Source: a candidate division WOR-3 bacterium
GTDB taxonomy: Bacteria > Hydrothermota > Tepidihabitantia > SM23-42 > JAOAFX01
DNA: 64,000 nucleotides
Reading direction: 5' to 3'
Assembly (NCBI GenBank): GCA_037444665.1
Contig: JBBILZ010000006.1
Coordinates: 56-64,055, forward strand
Below are positions 3,860 through 26,076 of this stretch, in pieces. Numbering within the stretch: position 1 is the stretch's first letter; every line of letters starts with the position of its first letter. The position numbers and the translations under genes are program-made. Below the pieces are notes generated by a model that was not told the origin of the DNA, made no database searches, and saw only the letters and a list, made by a program, of their open reading frames with translations.

Positions 3860-3893
3860 AATACCCCTTACCCCAATCCACTACATATTATGA

Positions 3894-3921
3894 GATTATA
3901 CAAATAATTTTTCCGCTGTCA
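3894..3921 (-). promoter_or_regulatory. Sigma70-type promoter TTGACA-16-TATAAT for 3218-3859
   Basis: Minus-strand sequence reads TTGACAgcggaaaaattatttgTATAAT, near-identical to the promoter at 5487-5514. It is preceded by a conserved element of about 38 nt (3922-3962). Confidence 0.6.
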
Positions 3922-4008
3922 ACTATAAAACAGCTAAATTATGCGGTAAAATGTTAAGCTCTGACCCGGGGCGTGCCTTCACACCATTATGATATTTGTT
4001 CTTAGATT

Positions 4009-4431: not shown

Positions 4432-4448
4432 GTTTTATTGGGACTATG

Positions 4449-4646: not shown

Positions 4647-4649
4647 GAA

Positions 4650-4680
4650 ATTATAATAACCATTTTTGGTTAAAAGTCAA
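4650..4680 (-). promoter_or_regulatory. Promoter TTGACT-16-TATTAT placed 6 nt from the ATG (predicted leaderless mRNA)
   Basis: Minus-strand sequence reads TTGACTtttaaccaaaaatggtTATTATaatttcATG. There is no SD, and the TSS is predicted at the A of the ATG. Confidence 0.5.
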
Positions 4681-4782
4681 GGGGCGGTTTTACTGTCGGA
4701 TTTATCTAACAAACAGCCAAAATAGAAAAATTATGTGGTAAAATGTATAATGTTGAGATCTGACCCCCTGACGGCCAAGAAA

Positions 4783-5391: not shown

Positions 5392-5486
5392 TCTTGGTCC
5401 ACTCCCATCCCCTCTGCATCTAACTTAGCACTGGATTTGCAAGTCATCTTCATATCTCCTTAATTTAATCTACTACTCTATGCTAC

Positions 5487-5514
5487 ATTATACAAACAAT
5501 TTCTCCGCTGTCAA
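5487..5514 (-). promoter_or_regulatory. Sigma70-type promoter TTGACA-16-TATAAT for 4783-5391
   Basis: Minus-strand sequence reads TTGACAgcggagaaattgtttgTATAAT. The conserved upstream element lies at 5527-5575. Downstream, a 21-codon uORF (aaggagatATGaagATGact...) has its stop overlapping the main ATG (ATGA). Confidence 0.6.
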
Positions 5515-5598
5515 GGACAGGATAAAAAATTATGCGGTAAAATGTAAAATGTTAAGATCTGAGCCAAAGGCGTCCAAATTCCAATGTGAATGTGGGAT

Positions 5599-6903: not shown

Positions 6904-7020
6904 ATATTCCTCCTGTCACATTTTTCTAATCGGCGATTAAAATGTCATAATTTTAACCTGTAGCTATTATGTGCAATAAGAATTTTAGTAACTATAAGAA
7001 TTAAAATCGCTTTTAAAGTA

Positions 7021-7485
7021 TTATTCATTGTTGTTCATATTTCTTTTGAGGCGGTAATAACGGCGGGTGTAATAAGTCCAGGATTTTGCTGAATCCAATG
7101 ACAACTTATTGTTTACATTTTTTCTGAACATTAATAAACGTCTTATTGTCCTCTCTGAAACTTTTAAATCACGTGCAAAATGCTTGTTGGCATAATTTAA
7201 GAAAAAACCTGTTTTATCTGATATTGTTAGGAACTGCCATAGTTTATCTGCAATATCCCAATAAAGAAAAATTTTCTGTTGATTTGAAGTATTAGTAATT
7301 GCATTTAACTGCTGTTTGCAAAATTCAATAGTCTCCCTATAAAGGTTTTCAAGATGTTCTACTTTTGATGTCAATTCTGTATCGGCTCGTTTTTCTTTTA
7401 ACAGCTCGCTCATTTGAATCTTGGCAACATAAATTATTTCATTATTTTGCTTTCTTGGTTCAATTTCAAAAAATATCTTATCCAT
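7021..7485 (-). CDS. Hypothetical protein (154 aa), translationally coupled to the upstream GHKL ATPase gene
   Basis: Its start at 7485 abuts the GHKL stop at 7486. The segment ...VSERTIRRLL... could be an HTH. No confident family assignment. Confidence 0.4.
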   Translation of the reverse strand: MDKIFFEIEPRKQNNEIIYVAKIQMSELLKEKRADTELTSKVEHLENLYRETIEFCKQQLNAITNTSNQQKIFLYWDIADKLWQFLTISDKTGFFLNYANKHFARDLKVSERTIRRLLMFRKNVNNKLSLDSAKSWTYYTRRYYRLKRNMNNNE

Positions 7486-8997
7486 TTATTTAAGATTACC
7501 CCAATTAGTTAAATATTTATTCAAAATCAGCATCTTATCTTGGTCTTGCGGTAATTCCTTGATAAGAGCAAAACCGATAGCTAAGACATAATGATATGTG
7601 ATCTGCCCAGTTTTTTCGGCAGACTTAAATGCAGGATGTGCCTTGTTGATAAAGACTTTTTCTATTCCTTCAGTCCAACTAATATCTTCTCGTGTTTCAT
7701 CGCTAAGAAAACTTATTGTTGGGCCAAATTTAATGGATCTCGGTCTTTTAGTTATTGGTTGATCAGTGCCGGGTTGTATCAGTGTGTCACCAAAATCTGG
7801 AACTACTGTGGTTCCTGAACCAGAGGCAGTGCCACCGGATTCTTCGCTAACTGGCATTTCTTGCGTCTGACCCTCTACCAATTTAGCAGTATCCTCGCTT
7901 TCTTTAGCTGTTAATAACACATCTTTGACTTGTCTTGCACTATACAATATATGAAGCTCCGGAATATCCGCTATGATTTTACTTACAAGTTTGGTTAAAC
8001 TATTAGTAAGATCTGCATCTTTCTCTTCCTCCACTTTAATTTCTCTTTGACCTATTTCTTCAAGCCATTTGATGAAGTTTTGCTGCGCAATTCTGCTGAA
8101 ACTGTAATATTTTTGTCCACAATAACCATCCTTGCGAAAAGCCGTCTTTGAAGTTACCAAGCAGTCAACGAGTTCGGGAACCTCAATAATACCGGAGATT
8201 TTTTCTGGGTTTTTTGGCTGTTGCTTAAACAATTCTTTTTGCTCGGTATTGATAATCTTCCCAAAGCATGATATTCCGATGCCCTGAAATTCTTCTGCGA
8301 TTGGCTCTTTACACAAAGAAAACTTGCATATTCCAAAAGGTTTCTTTTTTCTTCCCCTTGTTAGGAAAATCCGAGGTGATTCTTTTTCCGTATCAATCGT
8401 GGGCAATTTTATGACATCACCATTTAAAACAAAAGTAACACCAGCCGGGTAAACTTTGGCAAGTTTATAAAAATCCTCAAATAAAAATAGAGGCTGATAG
8501 TGCTTTAACATTATAGATTCAATCTTTTTATCGTCTAAAAGCAAAGATTCTCGGGACTTTAAATATATTCTTACTAATGTTCCTTGTGTATCAATCAAAG
8601 ATGGTTTAATATCTTCCCATTCCGGTTCTTTGCCAACAAATTCCCAATTAGATGTAAATTTGTATTTACCAGTGCAAGTCTCAGTGACAATTTTTTCAGC
8701 AATTCTTAGTGCCAATTTGGCACCCAACCCCGCAAAACCAATTCCTTTGCCTTTTTCTTTGAAGGTCATTGAAAAATTGTGGTAATTTTCAAATTCTTTT
8801 TCATTCATTCCCTTTCCGTTATCTTGTATTTCGAAAACCTTGGACTCTTTATTAGTATTTATTTTAATAACACTTGCCTTTGCATCTAAAGAATTAGCGA
8901 TTGTTTCTACCAAAACTGCTTCTTCAACTGAAAATGGGTACATACCTGCAAGGTCTTCTAAAAAGTGTTGATAATCAGTTGTGCTTTTATGCCTCAT
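7486..8997 (-). CDS. GHKL-superfamily ATPase (HATPase_c_3 / prokaryotic MORC-like)
   Basis: Bergerat-fold motifs are present: E..ANSLDA (N-box), DNGKGM (G1) and GIGFAGLGAK (G2). It lies 2 nt downstream of the Type IIG RM gene on the same strand. Confidence 0.65.
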   Translation of the reverse strand: MRHKSTTDYQHFLEDLAGMYPFSVEEAVLVETIANSLDAKASVIKINTNKESKVFEIQDNGKGMNEKEFENYHNFSMTFKEKGKGIGFAGLGAKLALRIAEKIVTETCTGKYKFTSNWEFVGKEPEWEDIKPSLIDTQGTLVRIYLKSRESLLLDDKKIESIMLKHYQPLFLFEDFYKLAKVYPAGVTFVLNGDVIKLPTIDTEKESPRIFLTRGRKKKPFGICKFSLCKEPIAEEFQGIGISCFGKIINTEQKELFKQQPKNPEKISGIIEVPELVDCLVTSKTAFRKDGYCGQKYYSFSRIAQQNFIKWLEEIGQREIKVEEEKDADLTNSLTKLVSKIIADIPELHILYSARQVKDVLLTAKESEDTAKLVEGQTQEMPVSEESGGTASGSGTTVVPDFGDTLIQPGTDQPITKRPRSIKFGPTISFLSDETREDISWTEGIEKVFINKAHPAFKSAEKTGQITYHYVLAIGFALIKELPQDQDKMLILNKYLTNWGNLK

Positions 8998-8998
8998 C

Positions 8999-11900
8999 TT
9001 ATTCCTCCGTTTTCATTACTTCCTGCCACAGAAGGTGTAGTACTTCACGCTGGGTTTTAGGACTCAAGATAGATAGAACCTCCTCTTCAATGACCTTGTC
9101 AATTTTTTCTCTTAATGCAGATAACTCAGGCAATATTTTTTTAAGATATTTTTCGTCATTGGGAATTTTTATAGTATCTAACCCCATTCCAATAAAATTT
9201 TTGAGATATTCGGCTTCAATTTCAGTTTCACATTCAATAAAAGCATTAGTCCCCCTAAGACGCCACTTAAATAGGTCTTTTTCAATTTTAATTTTTCCTT
9301 CAATTTCGGGTAAAGTTTTTTCATAGCAAGGTTTTGTTAAAATCTTTTCCCTATAGAATCTGCCCAAAGTATTATCGCCAAGTTGTGAGACAAGATTTTT
9401 TACTAACAATTCAATATCTATCCCTTCTTTGCTCTTTTTCTTCTTACCTTTGTCTTTTGCCTTTTTAATACGTGAATTAACTAAATCCACCACTGCCCGA
9501 TAAATCTCAAGTTGTTCTTCATCGGTAAGCCCGAGTATCTCACCCATAATAATTTTATCCAATTCCCTGCGGTCTGGTTTGATTTTGTCTAGTGTTACAT
9601 CTTTAGATTGAGTACTCCCCAGTTCATCAAAAACAGTCCCAAAATCTCTGCTTTTAAATGTTTCAAACATTGCGAGTAGAGTTTTTTTAGTGTTTTCCAA
9701 AATCTTGCGAGGATTTAATACGGGGAGTTTTTCAACTTCATAAACCATGAATCCAGTGGGAGCACCACCTCCTCCATAACTTCTGCCTAAAATATCTGGA
9801 TACAGAAATGCTATAGTTGAGTTAAAATATAACACAATTATCTTATTTATATCATCTACACTACTTTCGCATTCATACAATGTATGATCAACAAAACAAT
9901 TAAACAAATTCAGATGATATTTATAACTCTGTTGAAAGTACATTGTGAAAAGTACCTTGTAAGGATACCATTCTCCCAAATCATACCATCTGTTTCTACT
10001 CGCACAAGTTGGTCTTTTATGATAGCCTTTTCGTTCGCCCCACTGAATATATTTTAAGACATTTGTGCCTTTTAAATCTTTTTTATCTTTATGAATCATC
10101 AGGACTCGGTATTTTAAGTCTTCTGGTTTAACTATGATTGTTTTACATTCCCGGGGGCTTTTAATCACATAATTGGGAACCCAGTTGCCTTTATCGTCCT
10201 TATGCATCCAGAACTCTTTTTCAATTTTCTACTTTTTGATTTCTTCTTCGGTCAGATAGAAAAACTCATTGGCACCGGTTTTGATACCGAATCTCACTTC
10301 TGCAAGTTCCTTTAATGGCAAAAGTTTGTCTTTGCCCTTCTCTAAAATCTTAAAGAAAATCTGCGGCGCCCTTATATATTTGCCCCATTTTGAACCAACA
10401 TATTTCTGTTCTTCTGGGTCAAAGCCTTCGTCCCAGAGTTCTTTTTGTTTTTTGGGAATATTCTCAAATCTTCATTCTCATAAAGCTCATTATGGAAAAG
10501 TATGGTCTTTATTAATTCATCTATTTTGTTAAATCGTTCTTTCTCTTTTGCCCAATTATTAACCAGGGGGGGTATAAAATCCGATAGTTTCTTTTTTAAA
10601 TAAACAAACCTTACTAAATTTTCATCACGTTCCTGTGCATTTTTACATTTCTGAAGAATAACAATGCAGGTGTTAATATCTGCATCCTCAAACCAGCGCT
10701 CAACTTTGGATTCAATGATTGTAACTATCTTATAGTTTTTCAGAAAAAATTCTTGAAGACCCTTACCATAATCCACATCAAGCCAGGAATTGGATACGAT
10801 AAAACCAAAATACCCAGTATCTTTCAAAAATTTTGTGCCGTGGATAAAAAAGTAGGTATGAATACCCGCCCGTTTTGAAATATCGGCAAGTTTTTGATTA
10901 TTTAAAAAAAGCGCCTTTTTTATAAGACTGCCTTTCTCTACGCCAGTCTCTGGAATCTCTTCTTGTCGGGTATAAGGAGGATTACCAACAATGCAATCAA
11001 ACCATCGTGGATAAGTTACTTCTTTACCCATCTTACCGAGGGCTACCGTAACCACCTTACGCCATTTTTCGGGTAGTTCTAAACCCTCGGGTGAAGATAA
11101 TAGGTTAAAGAAGTCATCATGGACAATCATCGGATAATTCTTGTCCACAGATAAATCTCTAATAGCCAGATTTATTGTTGATAGGTGGGCTGGGAATTTA
11201 GCGATATCAACACCCCATAAATCCTTTAAGATTTCCTCATGTTGAAGCATTGAATTCATCAATTTCTTATGTTGATATGCCCTGACTAAAAAAGTTCCTG
11301 CGCCGCAAGCAGGGTCAAGAACTTTGTCCTTTTCATGATGCATACAGAACCTTAAAATAATGTCGACGATATTGGTGTTTGTAAAGTATTGACCCAGATT
11401 ATGACGTTCTTCAGCCGGAATTAACTGTTCAAAAATATAACCGATTATGTCATAAGTTAGATTGGAAAAATTGTAGCGCCTTAATATTTTCACCAAATTT
11501 TTTATTTCTGTTACGACTGCTGCATTATCAGGGAAAGCTAACTCATCAATAAAATCACTTGAATATACGGTCTCGTAGTCTATTTCTAGGACATCATTAA
11601 AATAGTTTTGCAAATGATTCTTAAGTAATCCACCTTTGGTTAAATCATCTGGAATATTTAATGGATCAAGTTTACGCTGTCTTTTAGCCTGAAGTGCATT
11701 ATAAAAGACAATTTTATTAACCAGAAGATAGGCGGTTTGCCGTGCAGCTTTAACAAAGTCTATATCTTGACCATTAAATTCCCATAATTGTTCATTGAAC
11801 CAATTTTTCAATTGCTGGCGAAATTCTTTATTCTTGTGATATTCATCTTCAATGATGACTTTGTAATATCGTGCAAGACGATTGACCTTTTCTTGCAAAC

Positions 11901-12480
11901 GCCAAACCAATAATTGATTTATTTCAATTAAAGGCTCAGATTTTTCCCCGGTGACAAACTGCGCAATATCTAAAATTAATTTCTCCAACCCTGCGTAGAT
12001 GCTGTTACGAAATTTTGGAAGTTCAATTTCATTCAGATCGGCAATCTGAGAAAGTTCATATCTGCCGACCAATTGCTCTTCAATAGGCTTCATCTCATTT
12101 ACTTTAATAGTGTTGAACAAAAAAAGGGACTGGAAATTAGATATCGCAAAATAACGGGCTTTTCTTCGGGCGGCTTTTTTGCGTGCAGGTTCTTTTAAAT
12201 TCTCCTCGTCGTCAGGTTCGTAAAAAGGTGCCTTGAATTCCAAAAGGCAAATAATTTCTTCATCTACCCTGCCTTTATATAATACAACATCGGGACGGGC
12301 GCGGTCACCAGGATGTTTTGTTTCAACTTCAGCAATACCAAGGGGAATATTCTTCTCTTTTATAATTTCATTAATCCATTCCATTATTTTGGCGGTTGCA
12401 GTCCATTCGGTTTTAATGACAAAATCTTCTATGGGACTCGGTGTTCGCTGGGTGCTTTTCAGAAGTTTACTTTTTTTCAT
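8999..12480 (-). pseudogene. MmeI-like Type IIG restriction-modification enzyme (PD-ExK nuclease + gamma-class N6-adenine MTase + TRD), disrupted
   Basis: The N-terminus has RPDVVLY...LLEFKAP (PD-ExK). MTase motif I is DPACGAGTFL and motif IV is GNPPY. After a -1 shift in the A/T homopolymer around 10440-10456, the reading continues as ...ELWDEGFDPEEQKYVGSKWGKYIRAPQ...VRFGIKTGANEFFYLTEEEIKK. An in-frame TAG follows at 10229-10231. The 402-aa downstream ORF (8999-10207) is in the same frame and has a TRD-like sequence. Confidence 0.6.
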
Positions 12481-12820
12481 CTTCCTTTTCTTTTAAGACC
12501 TCTTGAACTATACGGCGGGCGATTTCAAAGGTGGCGGCAATCCTGATAATTTTTACATCACCTAACCCTTTTATTTCAAGAAATTTTTTGAGCGGCTGAC
12601 CGAACATACCACGAAAAGAACCAAATTTTTCTAAAATCTCCTTCGCAATCGTTTCAGCAGATTTACCTTTTATTCCAGAACCAATGATGATTGATAATAA
12701 TTCGGCTTCGGTTAAATGCCCTGCTCCTAAGTCGCGCAATTTACCCCCTGGATGTGTCCAATAGGGGAATTTTGAATCGCGCAAAAGATTAGCTACTATT
12801 TTAGATTTTTTAGATGGCAA
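12467..12820 (-). CDS. radC: RadC-like protein, N-terminal HhH domain only (truncated; the JAB/MPN domain is missing)
   Basis: LTEAELLSIIIGSGIKGKSAETIAKEILEKFGSFRGMF...IKGLGDVKIIRIAATFEIARR matches the RadC N-terminal helix-hairpin-helix region. The ORF ends where the JAB domain should begin, and it overlaps the RM gene start. Confidence 0.6.
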   Translation of the reverse strand: MPSKKSKIVANLLRDSKFPYWTHPGGKLRDLGAGHLTEAELLSIIIGSGIKGKSAETIAKEILEKFGSFRGMFGQPLKKFLEIKGLGDVKIIRIAATFEIARRIVQEVLKEKEDEKK

Positions 12821-15912: not shown

Positions 15913-17165
15913 ATGCACGAGAAGCTTGTTTAAGTGCACTTTGTGAAGTAGATGATGGCACCAATCTCAAGGTTGCCTTAGGAAAGATCTTTGAAAAAGA
16001 TGAATTGTCTGAGGATGACCGCGCCCTGGCAAACGAAATTGCATTTGGCACACTACGCCATCGTGAAGAGATTGACCAGATTATTAAAGAGACATTTACT
16101 GGCGACTTCAATGCCTCTGACCCGATACTGAAAAACATTCTCCGTATTGCAGTTTATCAATATCTATTCCTTGACCGCATTCCAGTCTATGCCGTGGTAA
16201 ATGAAGCGGTCAATTTAGGAAGGACTGTAAAAGAAAAGGCTTTAATCAATGCGGTATTGCGGGGCGTTATTCGGAATAAAAAGGTCCAATCAATGCGTGA
16301 ACCACAGGTATGGGTACTGCGCAAAATAAATGAAGCCTATCCAGTAGAAGGTGAAAAAATCATTGAAGCGTTTAAGAATCGACCAATTCCATATATCAGG
16401 ATAAATATTTTGAAGACAAATCCAGATATGGTTGAGCAAAAATTAAAAGAGATGGGGATTGAGTCAAAACCCGGGAACTGGCTCATTGAATATCGCAGCA
16501 TCAGCCGATTAGGAGCGATCGTTAATAATTCCTTATTAAAACAGGGATGGATTTCAATCCACGATGAGGCACAGGGTATGATCTGCCGCCTTTTAGACCC
16601 CAAACCAAAAGAGCGGATTGTAGATGTATGTTCTGCACCAGGCAGTAAGACGACCTATATGGCAGAATTGATGCAGAATCAAGGAGTCATCATTGCCTGT
16701 GAGGTGAGTTCGGCACGGCTCAAACTCGTTGTAGAAAATGTTGAAAGATTGGGACTATCCATTGTAAACTATGTGCTTGCTGATGGACAGCGTTATCTGG
16801 TCAATGATTTTGACAAAGTGCTGGTTGATGCACCCTGCACAAATTCCGGAGTAATTGCCAAAAGGCCCGAGGTCAAAGAAAGGGTAAATAAAAAAGTGCT
16901 CGCCCGATTATCCAATCTTCAATATAATCTATTATCCAATGCTTCAAAATTTTTAAGGGTTGGGGGCTCAATTGTCTATTCAACCTGTAGTATTTTGCCC
17001 CGCGAAAATGAAGAGGTTGTAGAAAAATTTCTTAAAAATAATGAAAATTTTGTTGTAGAACCAGCAAAAAATTTTGTTGCCAGTGCTGAGCAGTATTTAA
17101 AAATCTTGCCGGGTTTTTATAACACTGATGGTATCTTTGCCGCACGATTAAAAAGAATAAAATAA
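15909..17165 (+). CDS. rsmB: 16S rRNA (cytosine967-C5)-methyltransferase RsmB/Sun
   Basis: NusB-like N-terminus plus a SAM MTase (DVCSAPGSKT, DAPCTNSG, STCS). Confidence 0.85.
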   Translation: MNAREACLSALCEVDDGTNLKVALGKIFEKDELSEDDRALANEIAFGTLRHREEIDQIIKETFTGDFNASDPILKNILRIAVYQYLFLDRIPVYAVVNEAVNLGRTVKEKALINAVLRGVIRNKKVQSMREPQVWVLRKINEAYPVEGEKIIEAFKNRPIPYIRINILKTNPDMVEQKLKEMGIESKPGNWLIEYRSISRLGAIVNNSLLKQGWISIHDEAQGMICRLLDPKPKERIVDVCSAPGSKTTYMAELMQNQGVIIACEVSSARLKLVVENVERLGLSIVNYVLADGQRYLVNDFDKVLVDAPCTNSGVIAKRPEVKERVNKKVLARLSNLQYNLLSNASKFLRVGGSIVYSTCSILPRENEEVVEKFLKNNENFVVEPAKNFVASAEQYLKILPGFYNTDGIFAARLKRIK

Positions 17166-17178
17166 TTAAAATTTAATA

Positions 17179-17207
17179 TTGACTTTTCAGTAGATTTGAA
17201 TTATAAT
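17179..17207 (+). promoter_or_regulatory. Promoter TTGACT-17-TATAAT, 8 nt before the ATG at 17216
   Basis: TTGACTtttcagtagatttgaatTATAATtcagtattATG. Confidence 0.5.
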
Positions 17208-17215
17208 TCAGTATT

Positions 17216-17623
17216 ATGGCAGGACCTACTGTGGCAATTAGTTTAACGAGTGAAAAGATTGAAAAACTTGAAAAATTACTTAATGAATTCTTCAGCCAGT
17301 CAAATGTGGTATGGTCAATGCTCATTACCAGTGCTGGACACCTTCTGGTTCAGAGGGGGTTTACACATACATTTGATACCCTTGCTATTGCTGCCCTTAC
17401 CTGTAATATATTCAATTCTACAATGGAACTGGCAAAGATTATCGGCGAAAAAAATTTTTATGAATTACTCCAGGAAGGGAAAAAGGCGAGTGTTTACTAT
17501 GTATCACTCAATGGAAACTACTTACTGGTTTCACTTTTTGATGACCGCACTATTCCCGGGGTCGTTAAGGTTGCATCAGAAGAATTTTCAAAAAATGTTA
17601 CAAATATTCTGAGGACAATATGA
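17216..17623 (+). CDS. Roadblock/LC7 (MglB-like) domain protein
   Basis: 135 aa. The sequence pattern (...SMLITSAGHLLVQ...LAIAALTCNIFN...SLNGNYLLVSLFDD...) fits the Roadblock/LC7 fold. Confidence 0.65.
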   Translation: MAGPTVAISLTSEKIEKLEKLLNEFFSQSNVVWSMLITSAGHLLVQRGFTHTFDTLAIAALTCNIFNSTMELAKIIGEKNFYELLQEGKKASVYYVSLNGNYLLVSLFDDRTIPGVVKVASEEFSKNVTNILRTI

Positions 17624-19524
17624 TTAAGAAAACAATAGACTTTCAAAATCTCTATATTTACGAAGGCAATAAAGTTGCTTTTATGGCAGCACAGAAGATT
17701 ATTGAATTTCCCGGTGAGATATTCAATCCTTTCTATGTTTATGCCACAAGCAGTTATGGTAAAACCTATTTTCTCTGGGCATTATATGGAGAATTTACCA
17801 AAAAAGAGCCTGCCCTGTTTTTTACACCCAAAGAATTTGAAGATTATTTGCAAAGCACAAATCAATTTGACTCAGCAATCTTTGTGGATGATATAAATCG
17901 CATTGCGGAAAGATTCCAGGAACAGATGCTCACACTCGTTGATATCTTAATATCAAAGAACAAACAACTATGTTTTTCTGGAAATGTTGCACCGCGTGAA
18001 CTGAAAAATTTGAGTTCAAAGATTATATCCCGTATTGAAGGCGGATTGGTCTGTGACATCCAGGCACCAAGAGAGATGGCATTGGTTGATTTTATAAAAA
18101 AGAAATCTGAGGAAAGGGGCATAATTCTTCCTGACGAGATTGCGCTTGAACTCACCCAGCTTTCTGCAGGTTCTTTCAGAACAATTGATGGTATGCTAAA
18201 CCGTCTCGTCGCCTATGCCTCGCTGGGCAATATCACATTTGATTTAAATACAGTGCGTTTGATCTTAAAAGAATTTTACCCGCGCGGCATTTATAGTCCT
18301 GTTGCTTCTCTGGTAGAAGAATTGAAAAAGAGTGCGGATGCAATCCTGCCAGAAATTTCCGAGAAAAAAGACCCATACAGTGAATATAAAGAAAAAATCT
18401 ATATCTGGGAAATGAAAGGATTTGATACCTCAGAGCTAAAACCCCTACTTGATGGTAATATTGAAACACTTGCTGATGCCTATAATAAATTCATTAAAAA
18501 AGTTGAGAAATTGATAGAATTACAGAAAGAATTTGGTGCTATTGATACTTCAAAATTTCCTGAAGAGGCGATGAGAATAGAGACTATGCTCTTTTCTCCT
18601 GACAAAATTGAAGAGATTGAAAATCTGCTTTCCAACATAAAAGAAAGACTCAAGGCTGAAGAGAAAAAACCCTTTGAAAATTATCTTATTGGTGAATGTA
18701 ATAGAACCGTGCTTGAACTATATGAAAAATCAATATTGCCCAATCTGGGCAAAAAATTTAATCCGTATGTAATATTTGGACCTCCAGGAACCGGCAAGAC
18801 CTTTCTCTGTGCAGAAATATTTTCAGACCTGAAAATAAAAGGGTACAGACCTGTAGTAATTGATTTTGAACAACAATTACCTGAACTACAACAGACCCTG
18901 GATGCGAAAAATGCATTATTGATTGACAATTTTCATAAAATCCTGCAGATAGAACTAGAACTGCGTAATAAATATACAGAAATTATTCTTGATTATATAA
19001 AGCAGGAGTATCCAGTATTTATATTTTCTGAGCCATTTTCCCAAGATGTGCAATTGACTGAAAATGAAAAACTCTTATTTGAATTTGGCGTAGAAGCCAG
19101 ACTAAATGAGCCTGACCCGGAAATAACAAAGACCATACTCAGTGCAAAACTAACACCTGAGGAATTTGAGGAAGTGCAGGGCAAAGGCATTCCCCAATTT
19201 AAAAACTTTAATGAATTTGATGATTTTATTAAAAATTTAAGGACGTCTCAACCGGTTACTGAAGTACCAGAAACAGAGACAGTGGTCAGTCTGGGACTTC
19301 CAGGAGAAGAAACTATCATACCTGCACCTGCGCCTGAGGAAATCAAAGAACCTGAACCGCAACAATTAGCGACAACCGAATTGGTTGAACCTGTGAAAAC
19401 ACCTGAACCGACTGTTTCCGTAGAAGAACCGCTCAAGAAACTAAAAGAACAGAGACTTCTTGTCCAAGAAATCCTTGATGAACTACTGGAAGAAAGTTAT
19501 GAACCACTAAACAAGAAGGCATAG
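17620..19524 (+). CDS. Protein with two tandem DnaA/Hda-like AAA+ domains and a Pro/Glu-rich tail (not a replication initiator)
   Basis: Domain 1: TIDFQNLYIYEGNKVAFMAAQ...FNPFYVYATSSYGKTYFL...AIFVDDINRIAERFQEQ...SRIEGGLVCDIQAP. Domain 2: FENYLIGECNRTVLELYEK...FNPYVIFGPPGTGKTFL...LLIDNFHKI. There is no DnaA domain IV. The C-terminus is a PAPAPEEIKEPEP... tail. Confidence 0.6.
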   Translation: MIKKTIDFQNLYIYEGNKVAFMAAQKIIEFPGEIFNPFYVYATSSYGKTYFLWALYGEFTKKEPALFFTPKEFEDYLQSTNQFDSAIFVDDINRIAERFQEQMLTLVDILISKNKQLCFSGNVAPRELKNLSSKIISRIEGGLVCDIQAPREMALVDFIKKKSEERGIILPDEIALELTQLSAGSFRTIDGMLNRLVAYASLGNITFDLNTVRLILKEFYPRGIYSPVASLVEELKKSADAILPEISEKKDPYSEYKEKIYIWEMKGFDTSELKPLLDGNIETLADAYNKFIKKVEKLIELQKEFGAIDTSKFPEEAMRIETMLFSPDKIEEIENLLSNIKERLKAEEKKPFENYLIGECNRTVLELYEKSILPNLGKKFNPYVIFGPPGTGKTFLCAEIFSDLKIKGYRPVVIDFEQQLPELQQTLDAKNALLIDNFHKILQIELELRNKYTEIILDYIKQEYPVFIFSEPFSQDVQLTENEKLLFEFGVEARLNEPDPEITKTILSAKLTPEEFEEVQGKGIPQFKNFNEFDDFIKNLRTSQPVTEVPETETVVSLGLPGEETIIPAPAPEEIKEPEPQQLATTELVEPVKTPEPTVSVEEPLKKLKEQRLLVQEILDELLEESYEPLNKKA

Positions 19525-21111
19525 ATGGCGATTAAAGGCTCATTGAGTGAAGCAACCTTGCCCGATGTGATTCAACTTTTGAGTTATTCATTGAGGTCAG
19601 GATGCCTGTCTGTAACTGATGGAAAGAATTTTGGAAATATTTTTATCAAAGATGGAAAGATAATCTATGCTACACTTCTCAATCGCAAGGACAGATTAGG
19701 TGATATTCTTGTGCGCAAACAGAAGATTGATGAAACGATTTTGAAATCAGCACTTGATGAACAACGCCAGACCAATAAACGGTTAGGAGAGATACTCGTA
19801 GAAAAGGGCTATATTACCAGAGAAATCTTAGAGAGTGAATTAGCAAACCAGATCTCTGAAACAATCTTCACCATGCTCACCTGGGAGACCGGCTATTTCA
19901 ATTTTGAAGCTGACCTATTACCGGGTAGTGAAGATTTTCTCGTTCAATTATCACCGCAGGAATTACTCCTTGAAGGTGCCCGCCGTATAGATGAATGGCG
20001 CAAGATTGAAAAAAGGTTACCTCCATTTGAGACGGTGCTGGCAGTAAAAAAGGATTATACTGGTATTCCGTTAACTTTTGAAGAAGAAAAAATTTTAACC
20101 CTTATTGATGGAAATCGGACCATTGATGATATTCTGAAACTCTCAGAATTTGATTTTTTTGAAACCTGCCGAACAATCTATGCCTTAATCTCTGCCGGCA
20201 TCGTTGAAAAACCTGAAAAGACTGAACTTGTTAGAAAAACTGCTGGCGATATTACAGAATATAAAAATCTTGGCTTTGCCTTTTTCAAAACAGGAATGCT
20301 GGACGAAGCAGAAAGGGAATTCAATAAAATTCTGGAAATTGTGCCTGACAATACTGAAGCACTTATGTATTGTGGACTTATAGAAATAAAACGGAATAAT
20401 TTCACCAGGGCAAAAGATTTTTTACTTAAAGCAGTAAATATAGAAAAGAATCCTTCAATTTTAAATAACCTTGCTTATATTTACAACAAAACAAATCTAT
20501 TTGATGATGCGCTCACTAACCTCAATCAGGCACTGGAACAGGCACCAGAAAATCCCCGTATCAACTGCAATTTAGGTATTGCATTGTTCCATAAAGGAGA
20601 ATTAGAAAATGCCCGTAATCTATTTAAACAACTCATAGAGAAAAAACCAGAATATATAACCGGCTATATATATCTTTCATTAATATATATAAAATCTAAT
20701 GAGATACAATTGGCAGTAGATTTTTTAAAAGAATGCATAAATAAATTTCCCCGCCTCGCTGTTTTCAAAAATAATCTCGCGGTCGTTTATGAAGCAATTG
20801 ACCTACCCGAAGAAGCAGAAAGATATTATCGTCTGGCACTGAATGATGAACCCCAAAATTACTCTATCTGCAGGAATTTAGCCGATTTTTATTATGAATC
20901 GCAGATCCTGGGTGCGGCAAAAGAATTGTATGAAAAGATTCCTGATGAAGAAAAGAACTGGGAGAGTCTGTTTAAATTAGGTAATATCCTTATGCGTTTA
21001 GGTGATGCTGATTCAGCACTCAATTACTGGGAAAAGGCAAAAAATTTAAATCCCGAAAATCAGGTGATAACCCAGAACATTGAACTACTCAAGAAGTCTC
21101 GTGGAAATTAA
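19525..21111 (+). CDS. DUF4388 / MshEN (T2SS-E N-terminal-like) / TPR repeat protein
   Basis: N-terminus GSLSEATLPDVIQLLSYSLRSGCLSV (DUF4388-like). LGEILVEKGYITREILESELANQ matches the MshEN / GspE-N motif. Multiple TPRs follow at the C-terminus. Its ATG follows the TAG stop of the preceding gene directly. Confidence 0.55.
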   Translation: MAIKGSLSEATLPDVIQLLSYSLRSGCLSVTDGKNFGNIFIKDGKIIYATLLNRKDRLGDILVRKQKIDETILKSALDEQRQTNKRLGEILVEKGYITREILESELANQISETIFTMLTWETGYFNFEADLLPGSEDFLVQLSPQELLLEGARRIDEWRKIEKRLPPFETVLAVKKDYTGIPLTFEEEKILTLIDGNRTIDDILKLSEFDFFETCRTIYALISAGIVEKPEKTELVRKTAGDITEYKNLGFAFFKTGMLDEAEREFNKILEIVPDNTEALMYCGLIEIKRNNFTRAKDFLLKAVNIEKNPSILNNLAYIYNKTNLFDDALTNLNQALEQAPENPRINCNLGIALFHKGELENARNLFKQLIEKKPEYITGYIYLSLIYIKSNEIQLAVDFLKECINKFPRLAVFKNNLAVVYEAIDLPEEAERYYRLALNDEPQNYSICRNLADFYYESQILGAAKELYEKIPDEEKNWESLFKLGNILMRLGDADSALNYWEKAKNLNPENQVITQNIELLKKSRGN

Positions 21112-21886
21112 TTTTCAGAATTTAATAAAACTCATTGAAGAGAAAACCGGATTTAAATGTGGCAGTTATAAAGAAAAACCACTCACCCGTCGCATCCGAG
21201 TCCGTATGCGTGCCCTTGGTCTGTCAGAATTCTCTCAATACTACAATTATCTAACGAGCAACCCTGAAGAATTTACAAAATTGCTTGATACCCTGACCAT
21301 AAAATTATCATATTTTTTTAGAAATACAGAAACCTTTGATTATTTAAAAAATGAAATTTTTCCGAGTTTTAAAAATAATGAAAAAATTATTATCTGGAGT
21401 GCTGGCTGTGCCCAGGGTGAAGAACCATATTCCCTGGCAATAATTGCTGCAGAATCGGGAATTTTAGACCGGGTTATGATCTATGCGACCGACATTGATG
21501 ACCATGCCCTAAAAAAAGCAAAGGCAGGTGATTATCCATCAATCGTGTTTCAATATACTCCCCAATTATATATTGAAAAATATTTTGAAAAGATTGGTGA
21601 GAATTACCGGATAAAAGACCATCTTAAATCAATTATTCAGTTCATCCATCTTGACCTTTTTGATAATTGTCCCTTCCCATTATGTGATGTCATTATGTGC
21701 CGCAATGTTTTAATTTATATGGACCGCAATGCCCAATCAGTTCTCGTGCGGAAATTCCTTGATAATTTAAAGCCGGGCGGATATCTGGTAATTGGCAAGG
21801 TTGAATTACTCCTTGGTATTCCTGAGGCAAAGTTTTTTTCTATTGTCAATCGTTCTGAACGCGTATACCAGAAGATCAAGGCATAA
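21080..21886 (+). CDS. cheR: Chemotaxis protein methyltransferase CheR
   Basis: CheR N-terminal domain plus a SAM MTase (IWSAGCAQGEEPYSLAI). Confidence 0.8.
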   Translation: MNYSRSLVEINFQNLIKLIEEKTGFKCGSYKEKPLTRRIRVRMRALGLSEFSQYYNYLTSNPEEFTKLLDTLTIKLSYFFRNTETFDYLKNEIFPSFKNNEKIIIWSAGCAQGEEPYSLAIIAAESGILDRVMIYATDIDDHALKKAKAGDYPSIVFQYTPQLYIEKYFEKIGENYRIKDHLKSIIQFIHLDLFDNCPFPLCDVIMCRNVLIYMDRNAQSVLVRKFLDNLKPGGYLVIGKVELLLGIPEAKFFSIVNRSERVYQKIKA

Positions 21887-21912
21887 AATGAACCCATTCA
21901 TTAAAAAAGCAG

Positions 21913-22374
21913 ATGGCAATTGAACAAAAAGTTGGCATAGGTGAAATAAAGATTGCAAAAGGTGATGTTGTCCTTTCTGCGTATGGTGTTGGTTCCTGCG
22001 TGGTCTTAACTTTCTATGATGCGGAAACCAAGACCGGTGGGCTCGCCCATATTCTATTGCCCCATGGTGCAGATGGCAGTTTCAAACATCCCAGAGGTGC
22101 AATTGAAGAGATGCTTAGACAATTTAGTGCCCTGGGCATTGACCGAAAAAAGATTGTAGCAAAAATTGCTGGTGGTTCCACAATGTTCGGAGAATTGATA
22201 CAAACTTCTATTGGGCAAAGAAATGTTGCTGAAACCAGGGAACAATTGAAAAAATTCTCTATTTTTCTCGCGGCAGAAGATGTCTATGGAAATTGGGGCA
22301 GAACTATCTTTTTTAATCTGAATACCGGTGATGTAGTAATCAGCTCATACCGCCACGGAGAAAAAATTATATAA
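21913..22374 (+). CDS. cheD: Chemoreceptor glutamine deamidase CheD
   Basis: VLSAYGVGSCVVLTFYD...GGLAHILLP matches the CheD family. Confidence 0.8.
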   Translation: MAIEQKVGIGEIKIAKGDVVLSAYGVGSCVVLTFYDAETKTGGLAHILLPHGADGSFKHPRGAIEEMLRQFSALGIDRKKIVAKIAGGSTMFGELIQTSIGQRNVAETREQLKKFSIFLAAEDVYGNWGRTIFFNLNTGDVVISSYRHGEKII

Positions 22375-23387
22375 TGAAAAAGAAAGTATTAATTGTAGAA
22401 GACTCGGTATTAATGCAAAGGGTAATAGGTGATATAATCCAGTCTTCAGGAGAATTTGAAGTATGCGGTTACGCGCGGGACGTGAGTGAGGCGTGGGCAA
22501 AATTTAGTAAATTAAGACCCGACCTTATTACCCTTGATTTTGAACTACCTGGTGAAAATGGGCTTGTCTTTTTACAAAAGATTATGGCAAATAATCCGAC
22601 GCCTGTTTTGATGCTTTCCGCACACACCCGACAGGGTGCAGAGATTACCATCAAGTCACTGGAACTGGGTGCAGTAGATTTTTTCCCTAAACCATCTGGT
22701 CCAATCTCTATTGACCTCTATGACTTCAAAGAGGAGTTGCTCTTAAAATTGCGGGGAGTTGCGCGAGCAAATCTTAGACCAGTTTTACCTGCACCTCAAA
22801 TCAAACCGATAACCAGGAAGATTGATTATGTAATCGGTATTGCTGCATCTACTGGTGGTGTTAAGGCATTGAACTTTTTAGTATCTTCTTTAAGCAGTGA
22901 AACAGGCTACAGAATTATTATTGTCCAGCATATGCCCAAATTCTTTACGGCGAGTCTGGCATTACATTTAGATGAGAAATCAAGCCTTTCTGTAAAAGAG
23001 GCAATAAATGGTGACCCTCTCTCCTGTGATACAGTATTCATCGCACCTGGCGGCAATCATATAAAGGTTCATCCTTCAGGTCAGATGGTCATTTTAACTG
23101 ATGAACCACCCAGGCATGGATTAAAACCCTGTGCTGACCTGCTCTTTGAATCAATGGCTGAAGTTTACAAAAACAGAGCTCTGGGCATTGTCCTCTCTGG
23201 TATGGGACACGATGGAACTGCTGGATTGAAAAAAATTAAAGCGATGGGTGGACTGACAATTGCCCAGGACCCATCTGAGGCAACTATCGGAAGCATGCCC
23301 CAGTCTGCAATAGATGCGGGTGTTGTGGATTATGTATTACCATTGCCTTTGATAGTAAATAAATTGACCGAATTGGCGCAGATATGA
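22374..23387 (+). CDS. cheB: Protein-glutamate methylesterase CheB (receiver + methylesterase)
   Basis: Receiver domain (VLIVEDS...ITLDFELPGENG) and methylesterase domain (IGIAASTGG, HMP, GMGHDG). Confidence 0.85.
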   Translation: MKKKVLIVEDSVLMQRVIGDIIQSSGEFEVCGYARDVSEAWAKFSKLRPDLITLDFELPGENGLVFLQKIMANNPTPVLMLSAHTRQGAEITIKSLELGAVDFFPKPSGPISIDLYDFKEELLLKLRGVARANLRPVLPAPQIKPITRKIDYVIGIAASTGGVKALNFLVSSLSSETGYRIIIVQHMPKFFTASLALHLDEKSSLSVKEAINGDPLSCDTVFIAPGGNHIKVHPSGQMVILTDEPPRHGLKPCADLLFESMAEVYKNRALGIVLSGMGHDGTAGLKKIKAMGGLTIAQDPSEATIGSMPQSAIDAGVVDYVLPLPLIVNKLTELAQI

Positions 23388-24250
23388 TTGAAAAGATTAA
23401 ACACCAGTTAGATGAACTTAATAGATTGATAAAAGAGTATACCCCTGCCCAGGATAAAACGATTAAGGAATTGATAAAAAAGTTATACATTGATATTGCG
23501 AATGGGATAAAATATTTGAATCAAGCACAGGATGACCTGTATCGCCTTGCTCGCGATTTACGAGATAGAAAAACGAACCGTGTTGATATGGACCGCTTTT
23601 ATTCATTCATTAAAGCAAAGGCTTCTCCTGAACTTGACATTGCTACATATCTTGACCGCGCCTGGAATTTAATCGTTATGGAAGAATATGATGAAGCAAT
23701 AAATATTCTAAAAAAGGTGCTTGAAATTGACCCGAAAAATCTGCGCGGACTTGGTCTGATCGGCCTTGGCTTGATGCATAAAGAGATGTATGATGATGCA
23801 ATGTTATATTTTCAAAAAGTTCTATTGATTGAGCCGAGCAATCCATTTGCCTTGAATAACTTAGGATTTATTTGCTACAAAAAAGGAATCTGGGGTGAGG
23901 CAATTGAACATTTGAGCAAGGTTGCGAAACAGACCAGGGACAGGATGGCAAGGCTCTATGCCAATTACTATCTTGGCCTGGTCTACTACGAAAGGGGTAT
24001 GGTTGCTGATGCCATAAAGTTTTTTGAAGAAGCACTCAAGCTCGGTCCTAACCTCCAGGAAGTTTCTTATTATCTTGGTCTTGCTGAATTAAAAAGATAT
24101 GAATTCCATAAGGCAGTTGAATATTTTGAAAAGTGTATAAAGATTGACCGGGAATCAAAATATGGAAAACTTGCTCAGGAAGAGGCAGAAAAGATCAAAC
24201 CCATTATTGAACCAATGTCAATAAAAAATCGCAATAAACAAGATTCTTGA
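23384..24250 (+). CDS. TPR repeat protein
   Basis: Multiple TPR motifs. Overlaps cheB by 4 nt. Confidence 0.5.
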   Translation: MIEKIKHQLDELNRLIKEYTPAQDKTIKELIKKLYIDIANGIKYLNQAQDDLYRLARDLRDRKTNRVDMDRFYSFIKAKASPELDIATYLDRAWNLIVMEEYDEAINILKKVLEIDPKNLRGLGLIGLGLMHKEMYDDAMLYFQKVLLIEPSNPFALNNLGFICYKKGIWGEAIEHLSKVAKQTRDRMARLYANYYLGLVYYERGMVADAIKFFEEALKLGPNLQEVSYYLGLAELKRYEFHKAVEYFEKCIKIDRESKYGKLAQEEAEKIKPIIEPMSIKNRNKQDS

Positions 24251-25029
24251 TGTATTTAAATAAAATATTAAAAAAGGCAGAAGAGATTGTAGTCCATACT
24301 GGAGACCATATCCATCGGCTCTCCAGCCAGAAGAAAAATATTGCATACAAAGGTGCGGTCAATCTAATAACCCAATTTGATAATATGGCACAAACAATGA
24401 TTGTAAAATTTCTTTTGAAAAATTTTCCTGATTATGGAATCTTAAGTGAAGAAAATGTCAATCATAATATAGACAGACCCATTAAATGGCTCCTTGACCC
24501 ACTTGATGGCACAACCAATTTTGCCCATAACTTACCGATCTGGGCAATCTCACTCGGTCTGGAAGTAGAGGGCTCGGTAATGCTTGGCATTGTCTATGAC
24601 CCAACAAGAAAAGAGTTGTTTACCGCAATTAAGGGCAAGGGGGCATTTCTGAATAAGAGAAAAATTCAGGTCTCTAAAATTAAAAATCTTGGAAAGAGCC
24701 TTCTCGTAACTGGTTTTCCTTATGATATTAGAGAGAGTAAAGAAAATAATCTTGACCATTTTGCACGATTCTGTGTGCGTGCCCAGGCAGTAAGAAGATT
24801 GGGCTCGGCAGCACTTGACCTCTGTTATACTGCCTGCGGCAGATTTGATGGATACTGGGAACTAAAACTCTCACCCTGGGACCAGGCAGCAGGCTCATTG
24901 ATTCTGCAAGAAGCAGGCGGAAACATTACTGATTTCAAGGGTAAACCATTCTGCATCTATGGCAAAGAGGTGCTTGGCACAAACGGACTTATCCACAAGC
25001 AGATGATGCAGGTTTTAAATTTTAGATAA
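24247..25029 (+). CDS. Inositol monophosphatase family protein (SuhB-like)
   Basis: WLLDPLDGTTNF and WDQAAG motifs. Confidence 0.8.
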   Translation: MMYLNKILKKAEEIVVHTGDHIHRLSSQKKNIAYKGAVNLITQFDNMAQTMIVKFLLKNFPDYGILSEENVNHNIDRPIKWLLDPLDGTTNFAHNLPIWAISLGLEVEGSVMLGIVYDPTRKELFTAIKGKGAFLNKRKIQVSKIKNLGKSLLVTGFPYDIRESKENNLDHFARFCVRAQAVRRLGSAALDLCYTACGRFDGYWELKLSPWDQAAGSLILQEAGGNITDFKGKPFCIYGKEVLGTNGLIHKQMMQVLNFR

Positions 25030-25032
25030 TTA

Positions 25033-26076
25033 TTATCTTTTGTATTTTTTCAATTGCAAAATTTGATGCGGCTTTTTTACAATCCCCTTTTCTGTTATAA
25101 TACCTGAAATCAACTTTGCTGGTGTCACATCAAATGCAGGATTACAGACCTTTGCCTTTTTTGCTACAATACATCTTTTATTAAAATAGGCAACCTCTGC
25201 TCCATCCCTGCATTCAATTGGAATATCAGCACCTGATTTGATATTGAAATCAAATGTAGAGAGCGGTGCAGCAACATAAAAAGGAATTTTATAATAATGG
25301 GCAATAATTGCCAGCCCTTTTGTGCCAATCTTATTTGCAGTATCGCCATTCAGCGCAATGCGGTCTGCACCGACCAGAACCATATCCATCTCTGGCATAT
25401 AGGTTCCTGCCATATTATCACAGATGGTATATGTCTCAATTCCATTCTTTGTCAATTCCCATGCCGTAAGCCTTGCGCCCTGTAACAAAGGCCTTGTTTC
25501 GCAGGAATAGACAGAAAATCTTTTGCCCATTTCCTTGGCAGTATATAATACACCCAGTGCAGTGCCTATACCACTTGTTGCCAGGGCACCAGCATTACAG
25601 TGAACCATAATTTTACTATTATCTTTTACAAGTCGGGCGCCATACTTCCCAATCATTATACAGGACTCTTTATCTTCATTTTCAATCATCTGTGCCTCTT
25701 TAAGCAAAATTTGATAAAGTATCCTGCGCTCTTTATCTTTATCCAGCATTTTCTCAACTTTTTTAATACACTTCTCCATCCTATCAATTGCCCAGGCAAG
25801 GTTGACTGCAGTAGGCCTTGCAGACTTTAAATATTCGGCATCTTTTAATATTTTTGAACGATTATTTTTAAAACTGGATAACACTACGCCATAGCCGGCA
25901 GTCACACCAATAAGTGGTGCACCACGCACCTGTAATGTCTTTATTGCATGATAAACATCGCTGACTGTTTTTAATCTTATATAAACTTCTTTCTCTGGTA
26001 ATCGGGTCTGGTCCAGCACAATAATTTCGTTCCTTTGTTTATCATATTTAATGGTTTTAAAGGCAATCATAGGCAT
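25033..26076 (-). CDS. mtnA: Methylthioribose-1-phosphate isomerase (eIF-2B alpha/beta/delta family)
   Basis: Hallmarks of the MtnA/eIF2B family are present (LDQTRLP, RGAPLIGVTAGYG). Confidence 0.75.
   Translation of the reverse strand: MPMIAFKTIKYDKQRNEIIVLDQTRLPEKEVYIRLKTVSDVYHAIKTLQVRGAPLIGVTAGYGVVLSSFKNNRSKILKDAEYLKSARPTAVNLAWAIDRMEKCIKKVEKMLDKDKERRILYQILLKEAQMIENEDKESCIMIGKYGARLVKDNSKIMVHCNAGALATSGIGTALGVLYTAKEMGKRFSVYSCETRPLLQGARLTAWELTKNGIETYTICDNMAGTYMPEMDMVLVGADRIALNGDTANKIGTKGLAIIAHYYKIPFYVAAPLSTFDFNIKSGADIPIECRDGAEVAYFNKRCIVAKKAKVCNPAFDVTPAKLISGIITEKGIVKKPHQILQLKKYKR

Follow-up and report, generated by a model that had tools for sequence, protein, structure and literature searches.

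What does an operon do with the methylation enzymes of chemotaxis when no receptor, coupling protein or kinase is encoded around it? The question is raised by a locus of a candidate division WOR-3 bacterium, in a stretch of 64,000 nucleotides of contig JBBILZ010000006.1 (the whole of which, 64 kb, is called the window below), where CheR, CheD and CheB are encoded behind an MglB-type Roadblock protein, an ATPase resembling DnaA and a PATAN-domain (DUF4388) protein with tetratricopeptide repeats (TPRs). Comparison with related loci points to the operon being the distal half of a chemosensory-plus-polarity system of WOR-3 and allied uncultured lineages, carrying its adaptation enzymes and polarity output and acting on type IV pili; a probability of about 0.6 is given to this reading.

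The operon and its larger relatives

The features of the operon, with lengths in amino acids (aa) and expectation values (E), are the following:

17179..17207, + strand: predicted sigma-70-type promoter-like site, TTGACT-17 nt-TATAAT, 8 nt 5' of the mglB-like ATG
17216..17623, + strand: MglB-type Roadblock/LC7 protein, 135 aa (Pfam Robl_LC7)
17620..19524, + strand: two-AAA+ ATPase, 634 aa (Bac_DnaA E 5e-24 in two stretches; AAA matches at aa 380-470)
19525..21111, + strand: PATAN (DUF4388) protein with C-terminal TPR array, 528 aa (Pfam DUF4388 and TPR families)
21080..21886, + strand: CheR methyltransferase with CheR_N and S-adenosylmethionine (SAM) domain, 268 aa (Pfam CheR E 2e-49, CheR_N E 2e-15)
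21913..22374, + strand: CheD deamidase (Pfam CheD E 5e-22)
22374..23387, + strand: CheB methylesterase with N-terminal receiver domain (Pfam, receiver and methylesterase)
23384..24250, + strand: stand-alone TPR protein, 288 aa (Pfam TPR families)
24250..25029, + strand: inositol-monophosphatase-family gene (Pfam Inositol_P E 1e-63)

The identities and order of the first seven genes, as given by the sequence-only reading, were borne out by the listing of open reading frames (ORFs) and by Pfam scans. Its statement that the window holds no kinase, coupling protein, receptor or MglA-like GTPase was likewise confirmed: Pfam scans of essentially all ORFs of at least 110 aa in the 64 kb revealed no CheA, CheW, methyl-accepting chemotaxis protein (MCP) or small GTPase (MglA), and tblastn searches of the window with the MglA, CheW, MCP, CheA, CheY, CheC, extra Roadblock and PATAN1 proteins of relatives matched only the operon's own genes.

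The nearest CheR homologs outside WOR-3, with 43-47% identity, are encoded in larger clusters. In loci L041-L043 the order is PATAN/TPR, TPR-Roadblock, Roadblock, MglB-like, MglA, single-AAA DnaA-like ATPase, PATAN/TPR, CheR, CheD, CheB, TPR, CheW, MCP and MCP, and in L044 it is MglA, two-AAA ATPase, PATAN/TPR, CheR, CheD, CheB, TPR, AAA_22, CheW, MCP and CheW. The window Roadblock is the ortholog of the MglB-like gene beside MglA in these clusters, orthologs of the PATAN/TPR protein occur in all the related loci, and the outgroup receptors are HAMP-MCPs. L041 starts with CheC and an 896-aa TPR-rich protein, a pair which in L045 is preceded by an MCPsignal-SBP_bac_5 protein, CheW, CheY and CheA. 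Moreover, a metagenome scan with generic CheA motifs returned 80 loci, most of them unrelated CheA genes and about a dozen with the supercluster; CheA, CheC, the TPR-rich protein, PATAN, MglA and the DnaA-like ATPase stand on one contig each in L054, L055, L059, L069, L070, L087 and L088, most of these seven having also CheW and CheY upstream and Roadblock genes. The second PATAN/TPR gene is reached in five of the seven, and L088 runs on into CheD and CheB. Since the outgroup clusters and the CheA-anchored contigs join both halves, the window block is, by gene order and homology, the distal half, now detached, of a chemosensory/MglA supercluster that is conserved, and the presence of methylation enzymes without a receptor is probably a mere consequence of the splitting of the cluster. 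Here no che operon adjoins of which these genes could be the tail, nothing of the kind being present in the 17 kb upstream or in the 39 kb downstream, but evolutionarily they are exactly such a tail.

As a separate observation, the superclusters outside WOR-3 end in a Ser/Thr kinase with a PEGA domain (L041:17623-19712, L042:18777-20507, L043:17591-19677), accompanied in L041 and L043 by a protein of ~125 aa, and this end may constitute a further signalling layer absent from WOR-3.

A genome scan gave 36 loci. The order MglB-like, ATPase, PATAN/TPR, CheR, CheD, CheB, TPR and inositol-monophosphatase-family gene recurs in about 27 loci, among which ATPase identity falls as low as 36-38%, and one of the 36, contig JBBINQ010000061.1 (WOR-3 bin SLS170214_bin_26), encodes proteins 95-100% identical to those of the window. 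The survey of synteny shows a block that is conserved in about 30 WOR-3 loci and thus throughout a phylum, with MglA directly upstream in 13 loci. In L019, L028 and L035 the ATPase, PATAN/TPR and inositol-monophosphatase-family genes are kept and those for CheR, CheD, CheB and TPR are gone (mglB being detected in L019 and L035), while L036, from Hydrothermales, keeps CheR only; for this reason the core is taken to be the ATPase-PATAN/TPR pair, usually with mglB ahead, and the adaptation enzymes a frequent add-on. CheA, CheW and MCP genes were not found within 10 kb in the other WOR-3 loci examined, except for a receptor gene in the L033 clade.

In L033, a divergent WOR-3 locus, this receptor gene is found on the strand opposite to mglB, 6.5 kb upstream of it, and encodes a protein of more than 1000 aa, in which two MCPsignal stretches (Pfam 83 bits) are fused to an SBP_bac_5 domain. 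In L046 the gene after the ortholog is CheW, and an MCPsignal-SBP_bac_5-CheW-CheY-CheA operon is present in L045, L047 and L048, the last two being contigs that could be placed neither in WOR-3 nor in the clade of the window; more distant members stand first in MCP-CheW-CheY-CheA(-CheC) operons. Because L033 encodes such a protein and CheW follows its ortholog in L046, at least one WOR-3 clade has receptors of the type that heads the supercluster elsewhere. The genes are the following:

L033:1-3095, - strand: MCPsignal-SBP_bac_5 gene
L045:10001-13246: MCPsignal-SBP_bac_5 gene
L046:10001-13171: MCPsignal-SBP_bac_5 gene
L047:105-3251: MCPsignal-SBP_bac_5 gene
L048:566-3709: MCPsignal-SBP_bac_5 gene

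The family is small and its members, of ~1050 aa, combine two MCPsignal-like hairpin regions with a solute-binding domain, an unusual receptor architecture.

Regarding transcription in the window, the TTGACT-17-TATAAT site matches at 11 of 12 positions and was the top promoter-like site of a promoter scan across 16800-25400, an interval in which no convincing internal terminator was found within the operon. From the roadblock gene to the 288-aa TPR gene the junctions measure -4, 0, -32, +26, -1 and -4 nt, the value of -32 holding only if CheR starts at TTG 21080, a start that is uncertain. The tight junctions and single-transcript block that had been claimed are thus upheld at the level of the sequence, the genes being co-directional and translationally coupled behind a strong promoter-like site. 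As for the seven-gene operon, the seven genes stand as listed but an eighth most likely belongs to it: because the inositol-monophosphatase-family gene begins at 24250 with an ATG that shares bases with the stop codon of the TPR gene (TGATG) and its end is convergent with mtnA, from which it is separated by 3 nt, the operon probably comprises eight genes, this one being the last. The gene is translationally coupled here and stays beside PATAN/TPR even in loci without CheR, CheD and CheB, and its functional link to the block is uncertain.

Roadblock protein, PATAN scaffold and DnaA-like ATPase

The Roadblock domain call passes the profile search (Robl_LC7 28.4 bits, cut-off 23). Furthermore, a profile of 17 orthologs matches the Myxococcus xanthus MglB structures 6h5b, 6izw and 6hjm over the full length (E ~3e-24, aa 4-130 to 4-130) and Thermus thermophilus MglB with E ~1e-9 to 4e-10, generic Robl structures being far worse (E > 0.4). 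It is true, on profile evidence, that the protein is an MglB homolog, as had been suggested, and it is predicted to be the GTPase-activating protein (GAP) or regulator of an MglA GTPase encoded elsewhere. In the 13 loci with MglA directly 5' of the roadblock gene, all of the Stahlbacteria branch, the MglA-type GTPase has 198 aa, is ~80% conserved and adjoins a DHH phosphoesterase gene; in the window's own clade, fmt-rsmB takes the place of DHH-MglA upstream of mglB.

In that same branch (L001:5394-9429 of CP070664.1 and equivalent loci), the DHH/DHHA1 phosphoesterase gene, encoding 507 aa, precedes the operon and overlaps mglA, and a PAS-HD (HD-GYP-like) protein is encoded 2 kb further upstream. 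Both proteins are possible extra links to nucleotide second messengers.

The PATAN protein matches Pfam DUF4388 (PF14332) with E 1.2e-34, its aa 4-159 aligning to profile positions 1-122 with a helical insertion, and its TPR families span aa ~237-515. The insertion is the second feature of interest:

19690..19851 (PATAN aa 56-109), + strand: MshEN-like insert, putative cyclic di-GMP (c-di-GMP) site, identified by phmmer against solved structures and by motif

Its sequence, RLGDILVRKQKIDETILKSALDEQ-RQTNK-RLGEILVEKGYITREILESELANQ, consists of two 24-residue motifs with the 5-residue spacer RQTNK, which is the arrangement by which MshEN domains have been defined (PMC5013675) and which is found in the MshE, PilB and PilF ATPases, the motifs being of the type RLGxx(L/V/I)(L/V/I)xxG(L/V/I)(L/V/I)xxxxLxxxLxxQ. 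Motif 2 fits the strict pattern, and motif 1 deviates only at positions 10-11, where Q-K replaces the turn glycine and the next hydrophobic residue. With phmmer, the insert matches PilF 6f8l (E 2.7e-8), the Vibrio cholerae MshE N-domain 5htl_A (E 2.9e-6; PATAN aa 55-115 to 7-67) and PilB 5zfr (E 4e-4), and the motifs are conserved across PATAN orthologs. The call rests on these structure comparisons and on motif matching: Pfam T2SSE_N matched neither the isolated insert nor aa 150-240 with E up to 10, and the DUF4388 model itself covers the insert. In this way the domain call fails with T2SSE_N but succeeds with phmmer against solved MshEN structures, and of the MshEN domain initially described an MshEN-like insert remains, not as a separate domain but as a helical insertion in PATAN. 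Unlike MshEN, it is not placed at the N-terminus of a secretion ATPase; the insert is a probable c-di-GMP site as judged from its residues, and binding is putative.

The third protein has been resolved into the following parts:

ATPase aa 1-220: AAA1
ATPase aa 250-347: helical module
ATPase aa 355-542: AAA2
ATPase aa 544-634: tail
18367..18660 (aa 250-347), + strand: the helical module, one copy of a ~95-aa repeat found by exhaustive phmmer; the wider interval between the two AAA+ domains is 18283-18690 (aa ~222-357)

It had been described as a tandem-DnaA-like ATPase, a description that fits the first domain but not the second. AAA1 is clearly DnaA-like: it matches DnaA domain III by profile against the Protein Data Bank (8bv3, E 9e-45) and, with the AlphaFold2 model, by Foldseek (template modelling score 0.81), and it aligns with this domain including the Walker A and B motifs, the box VII-like, arginine-finger-like SRxEGG and a sensor II-like arginine, all of which are invariant. 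AAA2 is a generic AAA+ domain with a weak match to RuvB/DnaC; since Walker A is kept and Walker B reads D-N, it probably binds nucleotide without hydrolysing it. Across orthologs G47, K48, D90, D91, R138, R187, G392 and D436 are invariant and N437 nearly so. In the model, with a mean pLDDT (predicted local distance difference test) of 74.7, a separate helical module stands between the two AAA+ domains and a tail of 90 residues is disordered. Despite this disorder, the acidic tail has the conserved residues L558, G559, G562, E563 and E621, and its motifs, PLGLPGEE and an acidic, aromatic C-terminus (ELIEENY in most orthologs), are suggestive of short docking motifs.

The repeat gave 165 matches in a set of 1.84 billion representatives. 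In rare giant proteins, which reach 3143 aa and of which one belongs to a Thermoplasmata archaeon, it stands 2-24 times in tandem, with 11-24 copies in some. No Pfam family matches it, and Foldseek with the ATPase model returned only generic AAA+/DnaA and nothing for the helical module; this helical repeat is undescribed. The ATPase itself has ~100 full-length relatives, nearly all in metagenome-assembled genomes of WOR-3/Stahlbacteria and one labelled TA06.

Despite the database annotations, the protein is classed here neither as DnaA nor as Hda: Pfam found neither DnaA domain I (DnaA_N) nor the DNA-binding domain IV (Bac_DnaA_C), and the 634 aa compare with the single short AAA+ of ~230 aa in Hda. 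Further differences from DnaA and Hda are, in WOR-3, the second AAA+ with D-N in Walker B, the repeat module and the tail, and the constant genomic partners, which are here MglB/MglA and PATAN/TPR. That the ATPase is nevertheless a replication-related paralog, placed by coincidence between mglB and the PATAN gene, is barely credible, for although DnaA domain III and Hda come first in the comparisons of sequence and fold, and the databases say 'DnaA/Hda family', it lacks domains I and IV, carries a lineage-specific helical module and tail, and is always flanked, in more than 40 loci of several lineages, by mglB/MglA and PATAN/TPR with overlapping stop and start codons.

Signalling model and competing explanations

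The reading as a polarity or motility module, already present in the sequence-only reading, is well founded at the level of homology and gene order: the MglB match, the MshEN-like insert, the conservation of the block and the MglA gene directly upstream in many relatives all point in this direction. In the mechanism envisaged, chemoreceptors encoded elsewhere in the genome, of the type found in the related WOR-3 clade (MCPsignal-SBP_bac_5 paired with CheW), would signal through a CheA kinase, and CheR, CheD and phospho-activated CheB would set receptor methylation and deamidation as in ordinary adaptation, the stand-alone TPR protein filling the role of the fused TPR domains of CheR-TPR enzymes. 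The output would go to the MglA GTPase switch, with the operon's first product, MglB, as its GAP. The PATAN/TPR protein could act as a scaffold whose PATAN domain contacts, by analogy, the type IV pilus motor (PilB/PilC), whose MshEN-like insert senses c-di-GMP and whose TPRs recruit partners. The DnaA-like ATPase would assemble in an ATP-dependent manner, as an assembly or remodelling factor, tethered to a TPR or CheR partner by the short motifs of its disordered acidic tail. The net effect would be on where and when type IV pili act, in twitching, reversals or adhesion. These steps are inferred, the role of the ATPase, the docking of its tail and the pilus target among them.

The pilus link draws on Synechocystis, where PATAN domains interact with PilB1 and PilC and are sufficient to switch the direction of pilus-based phototaxis (bioRxiv 10.1101/2021.06.11.447907). 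MglA/MglB genes have already been remarked upon as neighbours of PATAN genes (bioRxiv 10.1101/2021.06.11.447907; PMC4316618), and the first cultured WOR-3 strain bears pili (PMC12285271). PilT-like genes were found a few kb upstream of the block in L014 and L044, and the pilMNOPQ genes, reported earlier at 13 kb from the operon, were located in the window at 37767-41962.

More tentatively, the ATPase and the PATAN(MshEN)/TPR protein might together form an unrecognised output or adaptor device that couples chemoreceptor arrays and c-di-GMP to MglA/MglB and the pilus motor, and which in WOR-3, together with CheR, CheD and CheB, may work without a dedicated adjacent kinase, either by kinase-independent signalling from receptor to ATPase or by the adaptation enzymes modifying the device. 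This is a possibility and not the expected outcome.

Several observations weigh against the reading of the operon as half of a chemosensory system acting on pili. No MCP, CheW, CheA or MglA has been shown for this organism within the 64 kb examined. With such genes not within 10 kb in the WOR-3 loci examined, the L033 clade excepted, the pathway may be rewired or partly lost in WOR-3. The adaptation enzymes are dispensable for the core, as seen in the three loci without them and in that with CheR only. The first MshEN-like motif lacks the turn glycine, and c-di-GMP binding is putative. The role of the ATPase and its tethering by tail motifs are purely conjectural. Finally, the link to type IV pili is made by analogy, pilMNOPQ lies 13 kb off and is common anyway, and the cultured WOR-3 strain showed no motility (PMC12285271).

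A first alternative keeps the same signalling logic and gives it another target, such as gliding, cell division or pole identity, or the envelope or secretion, with MglA as a general spatial switch. In its favour, MglA governs gliding, predation and other polar processes in various bacteria (PMC4316618; PMC3983030), no motility was observed in the cultured strain just mentioned, and no pilB, pilT or pilC is present in or beside the operon in the window. However, PATAN alone among the parts has a partner established by experiment, the pilus motor in Synechocystis; pilus and secretion ATPases are the usual carriers of MshEN motifs, and the PilT-like genes of L014 and L044, the pilMNOPQ genes of the window and the pili of the phylum add to this. 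A target other than pili is therefore considered rather unlikely.

A second alternative concerns the substrate of the methylation enzymes. The sequence-only reading had raised the possibility of a non-canonical one. In the form considered here, CheR, CheD and CheB would modify glutamates on an operon partner (such as the helical module or tail of the ATPase, or the PATAN/TPR scaffold) and tune the polarity module directly. It is consistent with the ~27 WOR-3 loci that keep the three enzymes beside ATPase-PATAN/TPR with CheW and MCP not within 10 kb, with L036, where CheR alone is kept beside PATAN/TPR, and with the glutamate-rich helical module and the long acidic tail with invariant residues of the ATPase. 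Against it, the receptor methylation/deamidation consensus [ASTG][ASTG]xx[EQ][EQ]xx[ASTG][ASTG] was found by motif search in none of the seven operon proteins; the orthologous enzymes of the outgroups adjoin ordinary HAMP-MCPs and CheW; in one WOR-3 clade an MCPsignal protein is encoded near the block, and in a relative its ortholog is followed by CheW; and the receiver of CheB is intact, as expected under CheA control. In CheB, the receiver residues D10, D55, S82 and K106, as well as the esterase Ser/His/Asp triad, are invariant in 29 orthologs, and the intact phospho-acceptor site implies, as a prediction from these residues, a kinase. The non-canonical substrate is for these reasons distinctly unlikely and not supported: with receptors adjacent in relatives, no methylation consensus in the operon and a CheB built for phosphorylation, ordinary receptors are the most economical substrate.

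As regards the other adaptation proteins, CheR has ~100 WOR-3-type orthologs and consists of CheR_N and CheR domains only, with no TPR fusion, the TPRs being on separate neighbouring proteins; the candidate catalytic Cys and His of CheD can be seen by eye; and the stand-alone TPR gene always follows CheB, both in WOR-3 and in the outgroup clusters, where CheW comes next.

In the Hydrothermales locus (L036:14119-15939), a lysine/glutamate-rich protein of 606 aa overlaps the CheR stop and replaces CheD, CheB and TPR; it was considered as a CheR substrate and rejected, having no Pfam match and no coiled-coil MCP features. A 525-aa protein of L033 was also rejected as a substrate candidate, being a polytopic membrane protein.

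It is most improbable, finally, that the WOR-3 block is an evolutionary remnant, a decaying leftover of the broken-up supercluster with little function. Beside every WOR-3 locus the proximal half, with CheA, CheW, MCP and the additional Roadblock and PATAN genes, is indeed missing, and CheR, CheD and CheB have been lost in some, but all eight ORFs are intact, with overlapping junctions and a strong promoter-like site ahead, the block is kept down to 36% ATPase identity, and the catalytic, receiver and nucleotide-binding residues are invariant.

Relation to known systems and genomic surroundings

The reading of the operon as the distal half of a chemosensory-plus-polarity system acting on pili has its closest parallel in the Frz-MglA/MglB (RomR) system of M. 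xanthus, where a Che-type pathway with CheR/CheB-type enzymes is coupled to MglA and the Roadblock GAP MglB and controls which pole the motility machine uses. There, FrzF is a CheR with TPRs. Unlike the WOR-3 block and its relatives, where Che genes, MglA, several Roadblocks, PATAN/TPR and the DnaA-like ATPase are found in one cluster, the frz and mgl genes are unlinked and connected through response regulators (PMC4316618). No RomR or RomX was seen here, CheD and CheC are present, and the window itself is without MglA, CheA, CheW and MCP.

The cyanobacterial Tax/Pix systems, with PatA-type PATAN-REC (receiver) regulators, are similar in that PATAN is encoded in chemosensory gene clusters, and their PATAN serves as the output, binding PilB1 and PilC and determining the direction in which pilus-based movement proceeds (bioRxiv 10.1101/2021.06.11.447907). 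In contrast, PATAN is here fused to TPRs and has no receiver, hence no direct phosphorylation. Moreover, the cyanobacterial clusters are usually without CheR and CheB (bioRxiv 10.1101/2021.06.11.447907), whereas the block of the window is built around them, with MglB and an AAA+ ATPase in addition. In the CheR-TPR fusions of pathways of the type IV pilus (Tfp) and alternative cellular function (ACF) classes, TPRs are also tied to adaptation enzymes in non-flagellar pathways (PMC3447774); here a gene of its own, downstream of CheB, encodes the TPR protein, and a second TPR array is carried by the PATAN protein just before CheR.

In the literature, no description of the MglB/PATAN/CheR cluster, of the ATPase family or of WOR-3 chemotaxis or motility was found, only general remarks on PATAN-MglB neighbourhoods. 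What is new is the hard-wired link between Che and MglAB together with the DnaA-like ATPase; both the logic and the types of component have precedents in Frz-Mgl and in cyanobacterial PATAN in Che clusters. How chemosensory signalling acts on a Ras-like polarity switch is understood only for Myxococcus, and there in outline, with scattered genes and an indirect connection; here the two systems share one cluster that recurs in several uncultured lineages. Two of its parts are unstudied: the PATAN/TPR scaffold, whose c-di-GMP site is probable, and an initiator-type AAA+ ATPase that lacks a DNA-binding domain, an instance of a DnaA-type ATPase put to use outside replication. The cluster offers a parts list for how receptor signals, c-di-GMP and a GTPase switch may be combined to place pili, and the piliated WOR-3 isolate (PMC12285271) brings experiments within reach.

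Upstream of the operon, the window carries the housekeeping genes recR, yajC, def, fmt and rsmB. On the - strand, positions 1097-12820 are likely to be a restriction-modification/defence island, with a methylase-endonuclease of the Eco57I/MmeI type (10372-12480), a protein with the M.Eco57I C-domain, another with HATPase_c_3, DUF2130, several ORFs that match nothing in Pfam and, at 12467-12820, a truncated N-terminal fragment of UPF0758 (RadC-like). Components of the phosphotransferase system (PTS; sorbose-family IIB and mannose/fructose-type IIA) and an HPr kinase/phosphorylase gene are also present (622-1095, 44706-46135). Lastly, the queuine tRNA-ribosyltransferase gene (tgt) at 36547-37661 is split into two overlapping ORFs, corresponding to Pfam TGT positions 3-166 and 167-352, which could be due to a frameshift, a pseudogene or an assembly error.

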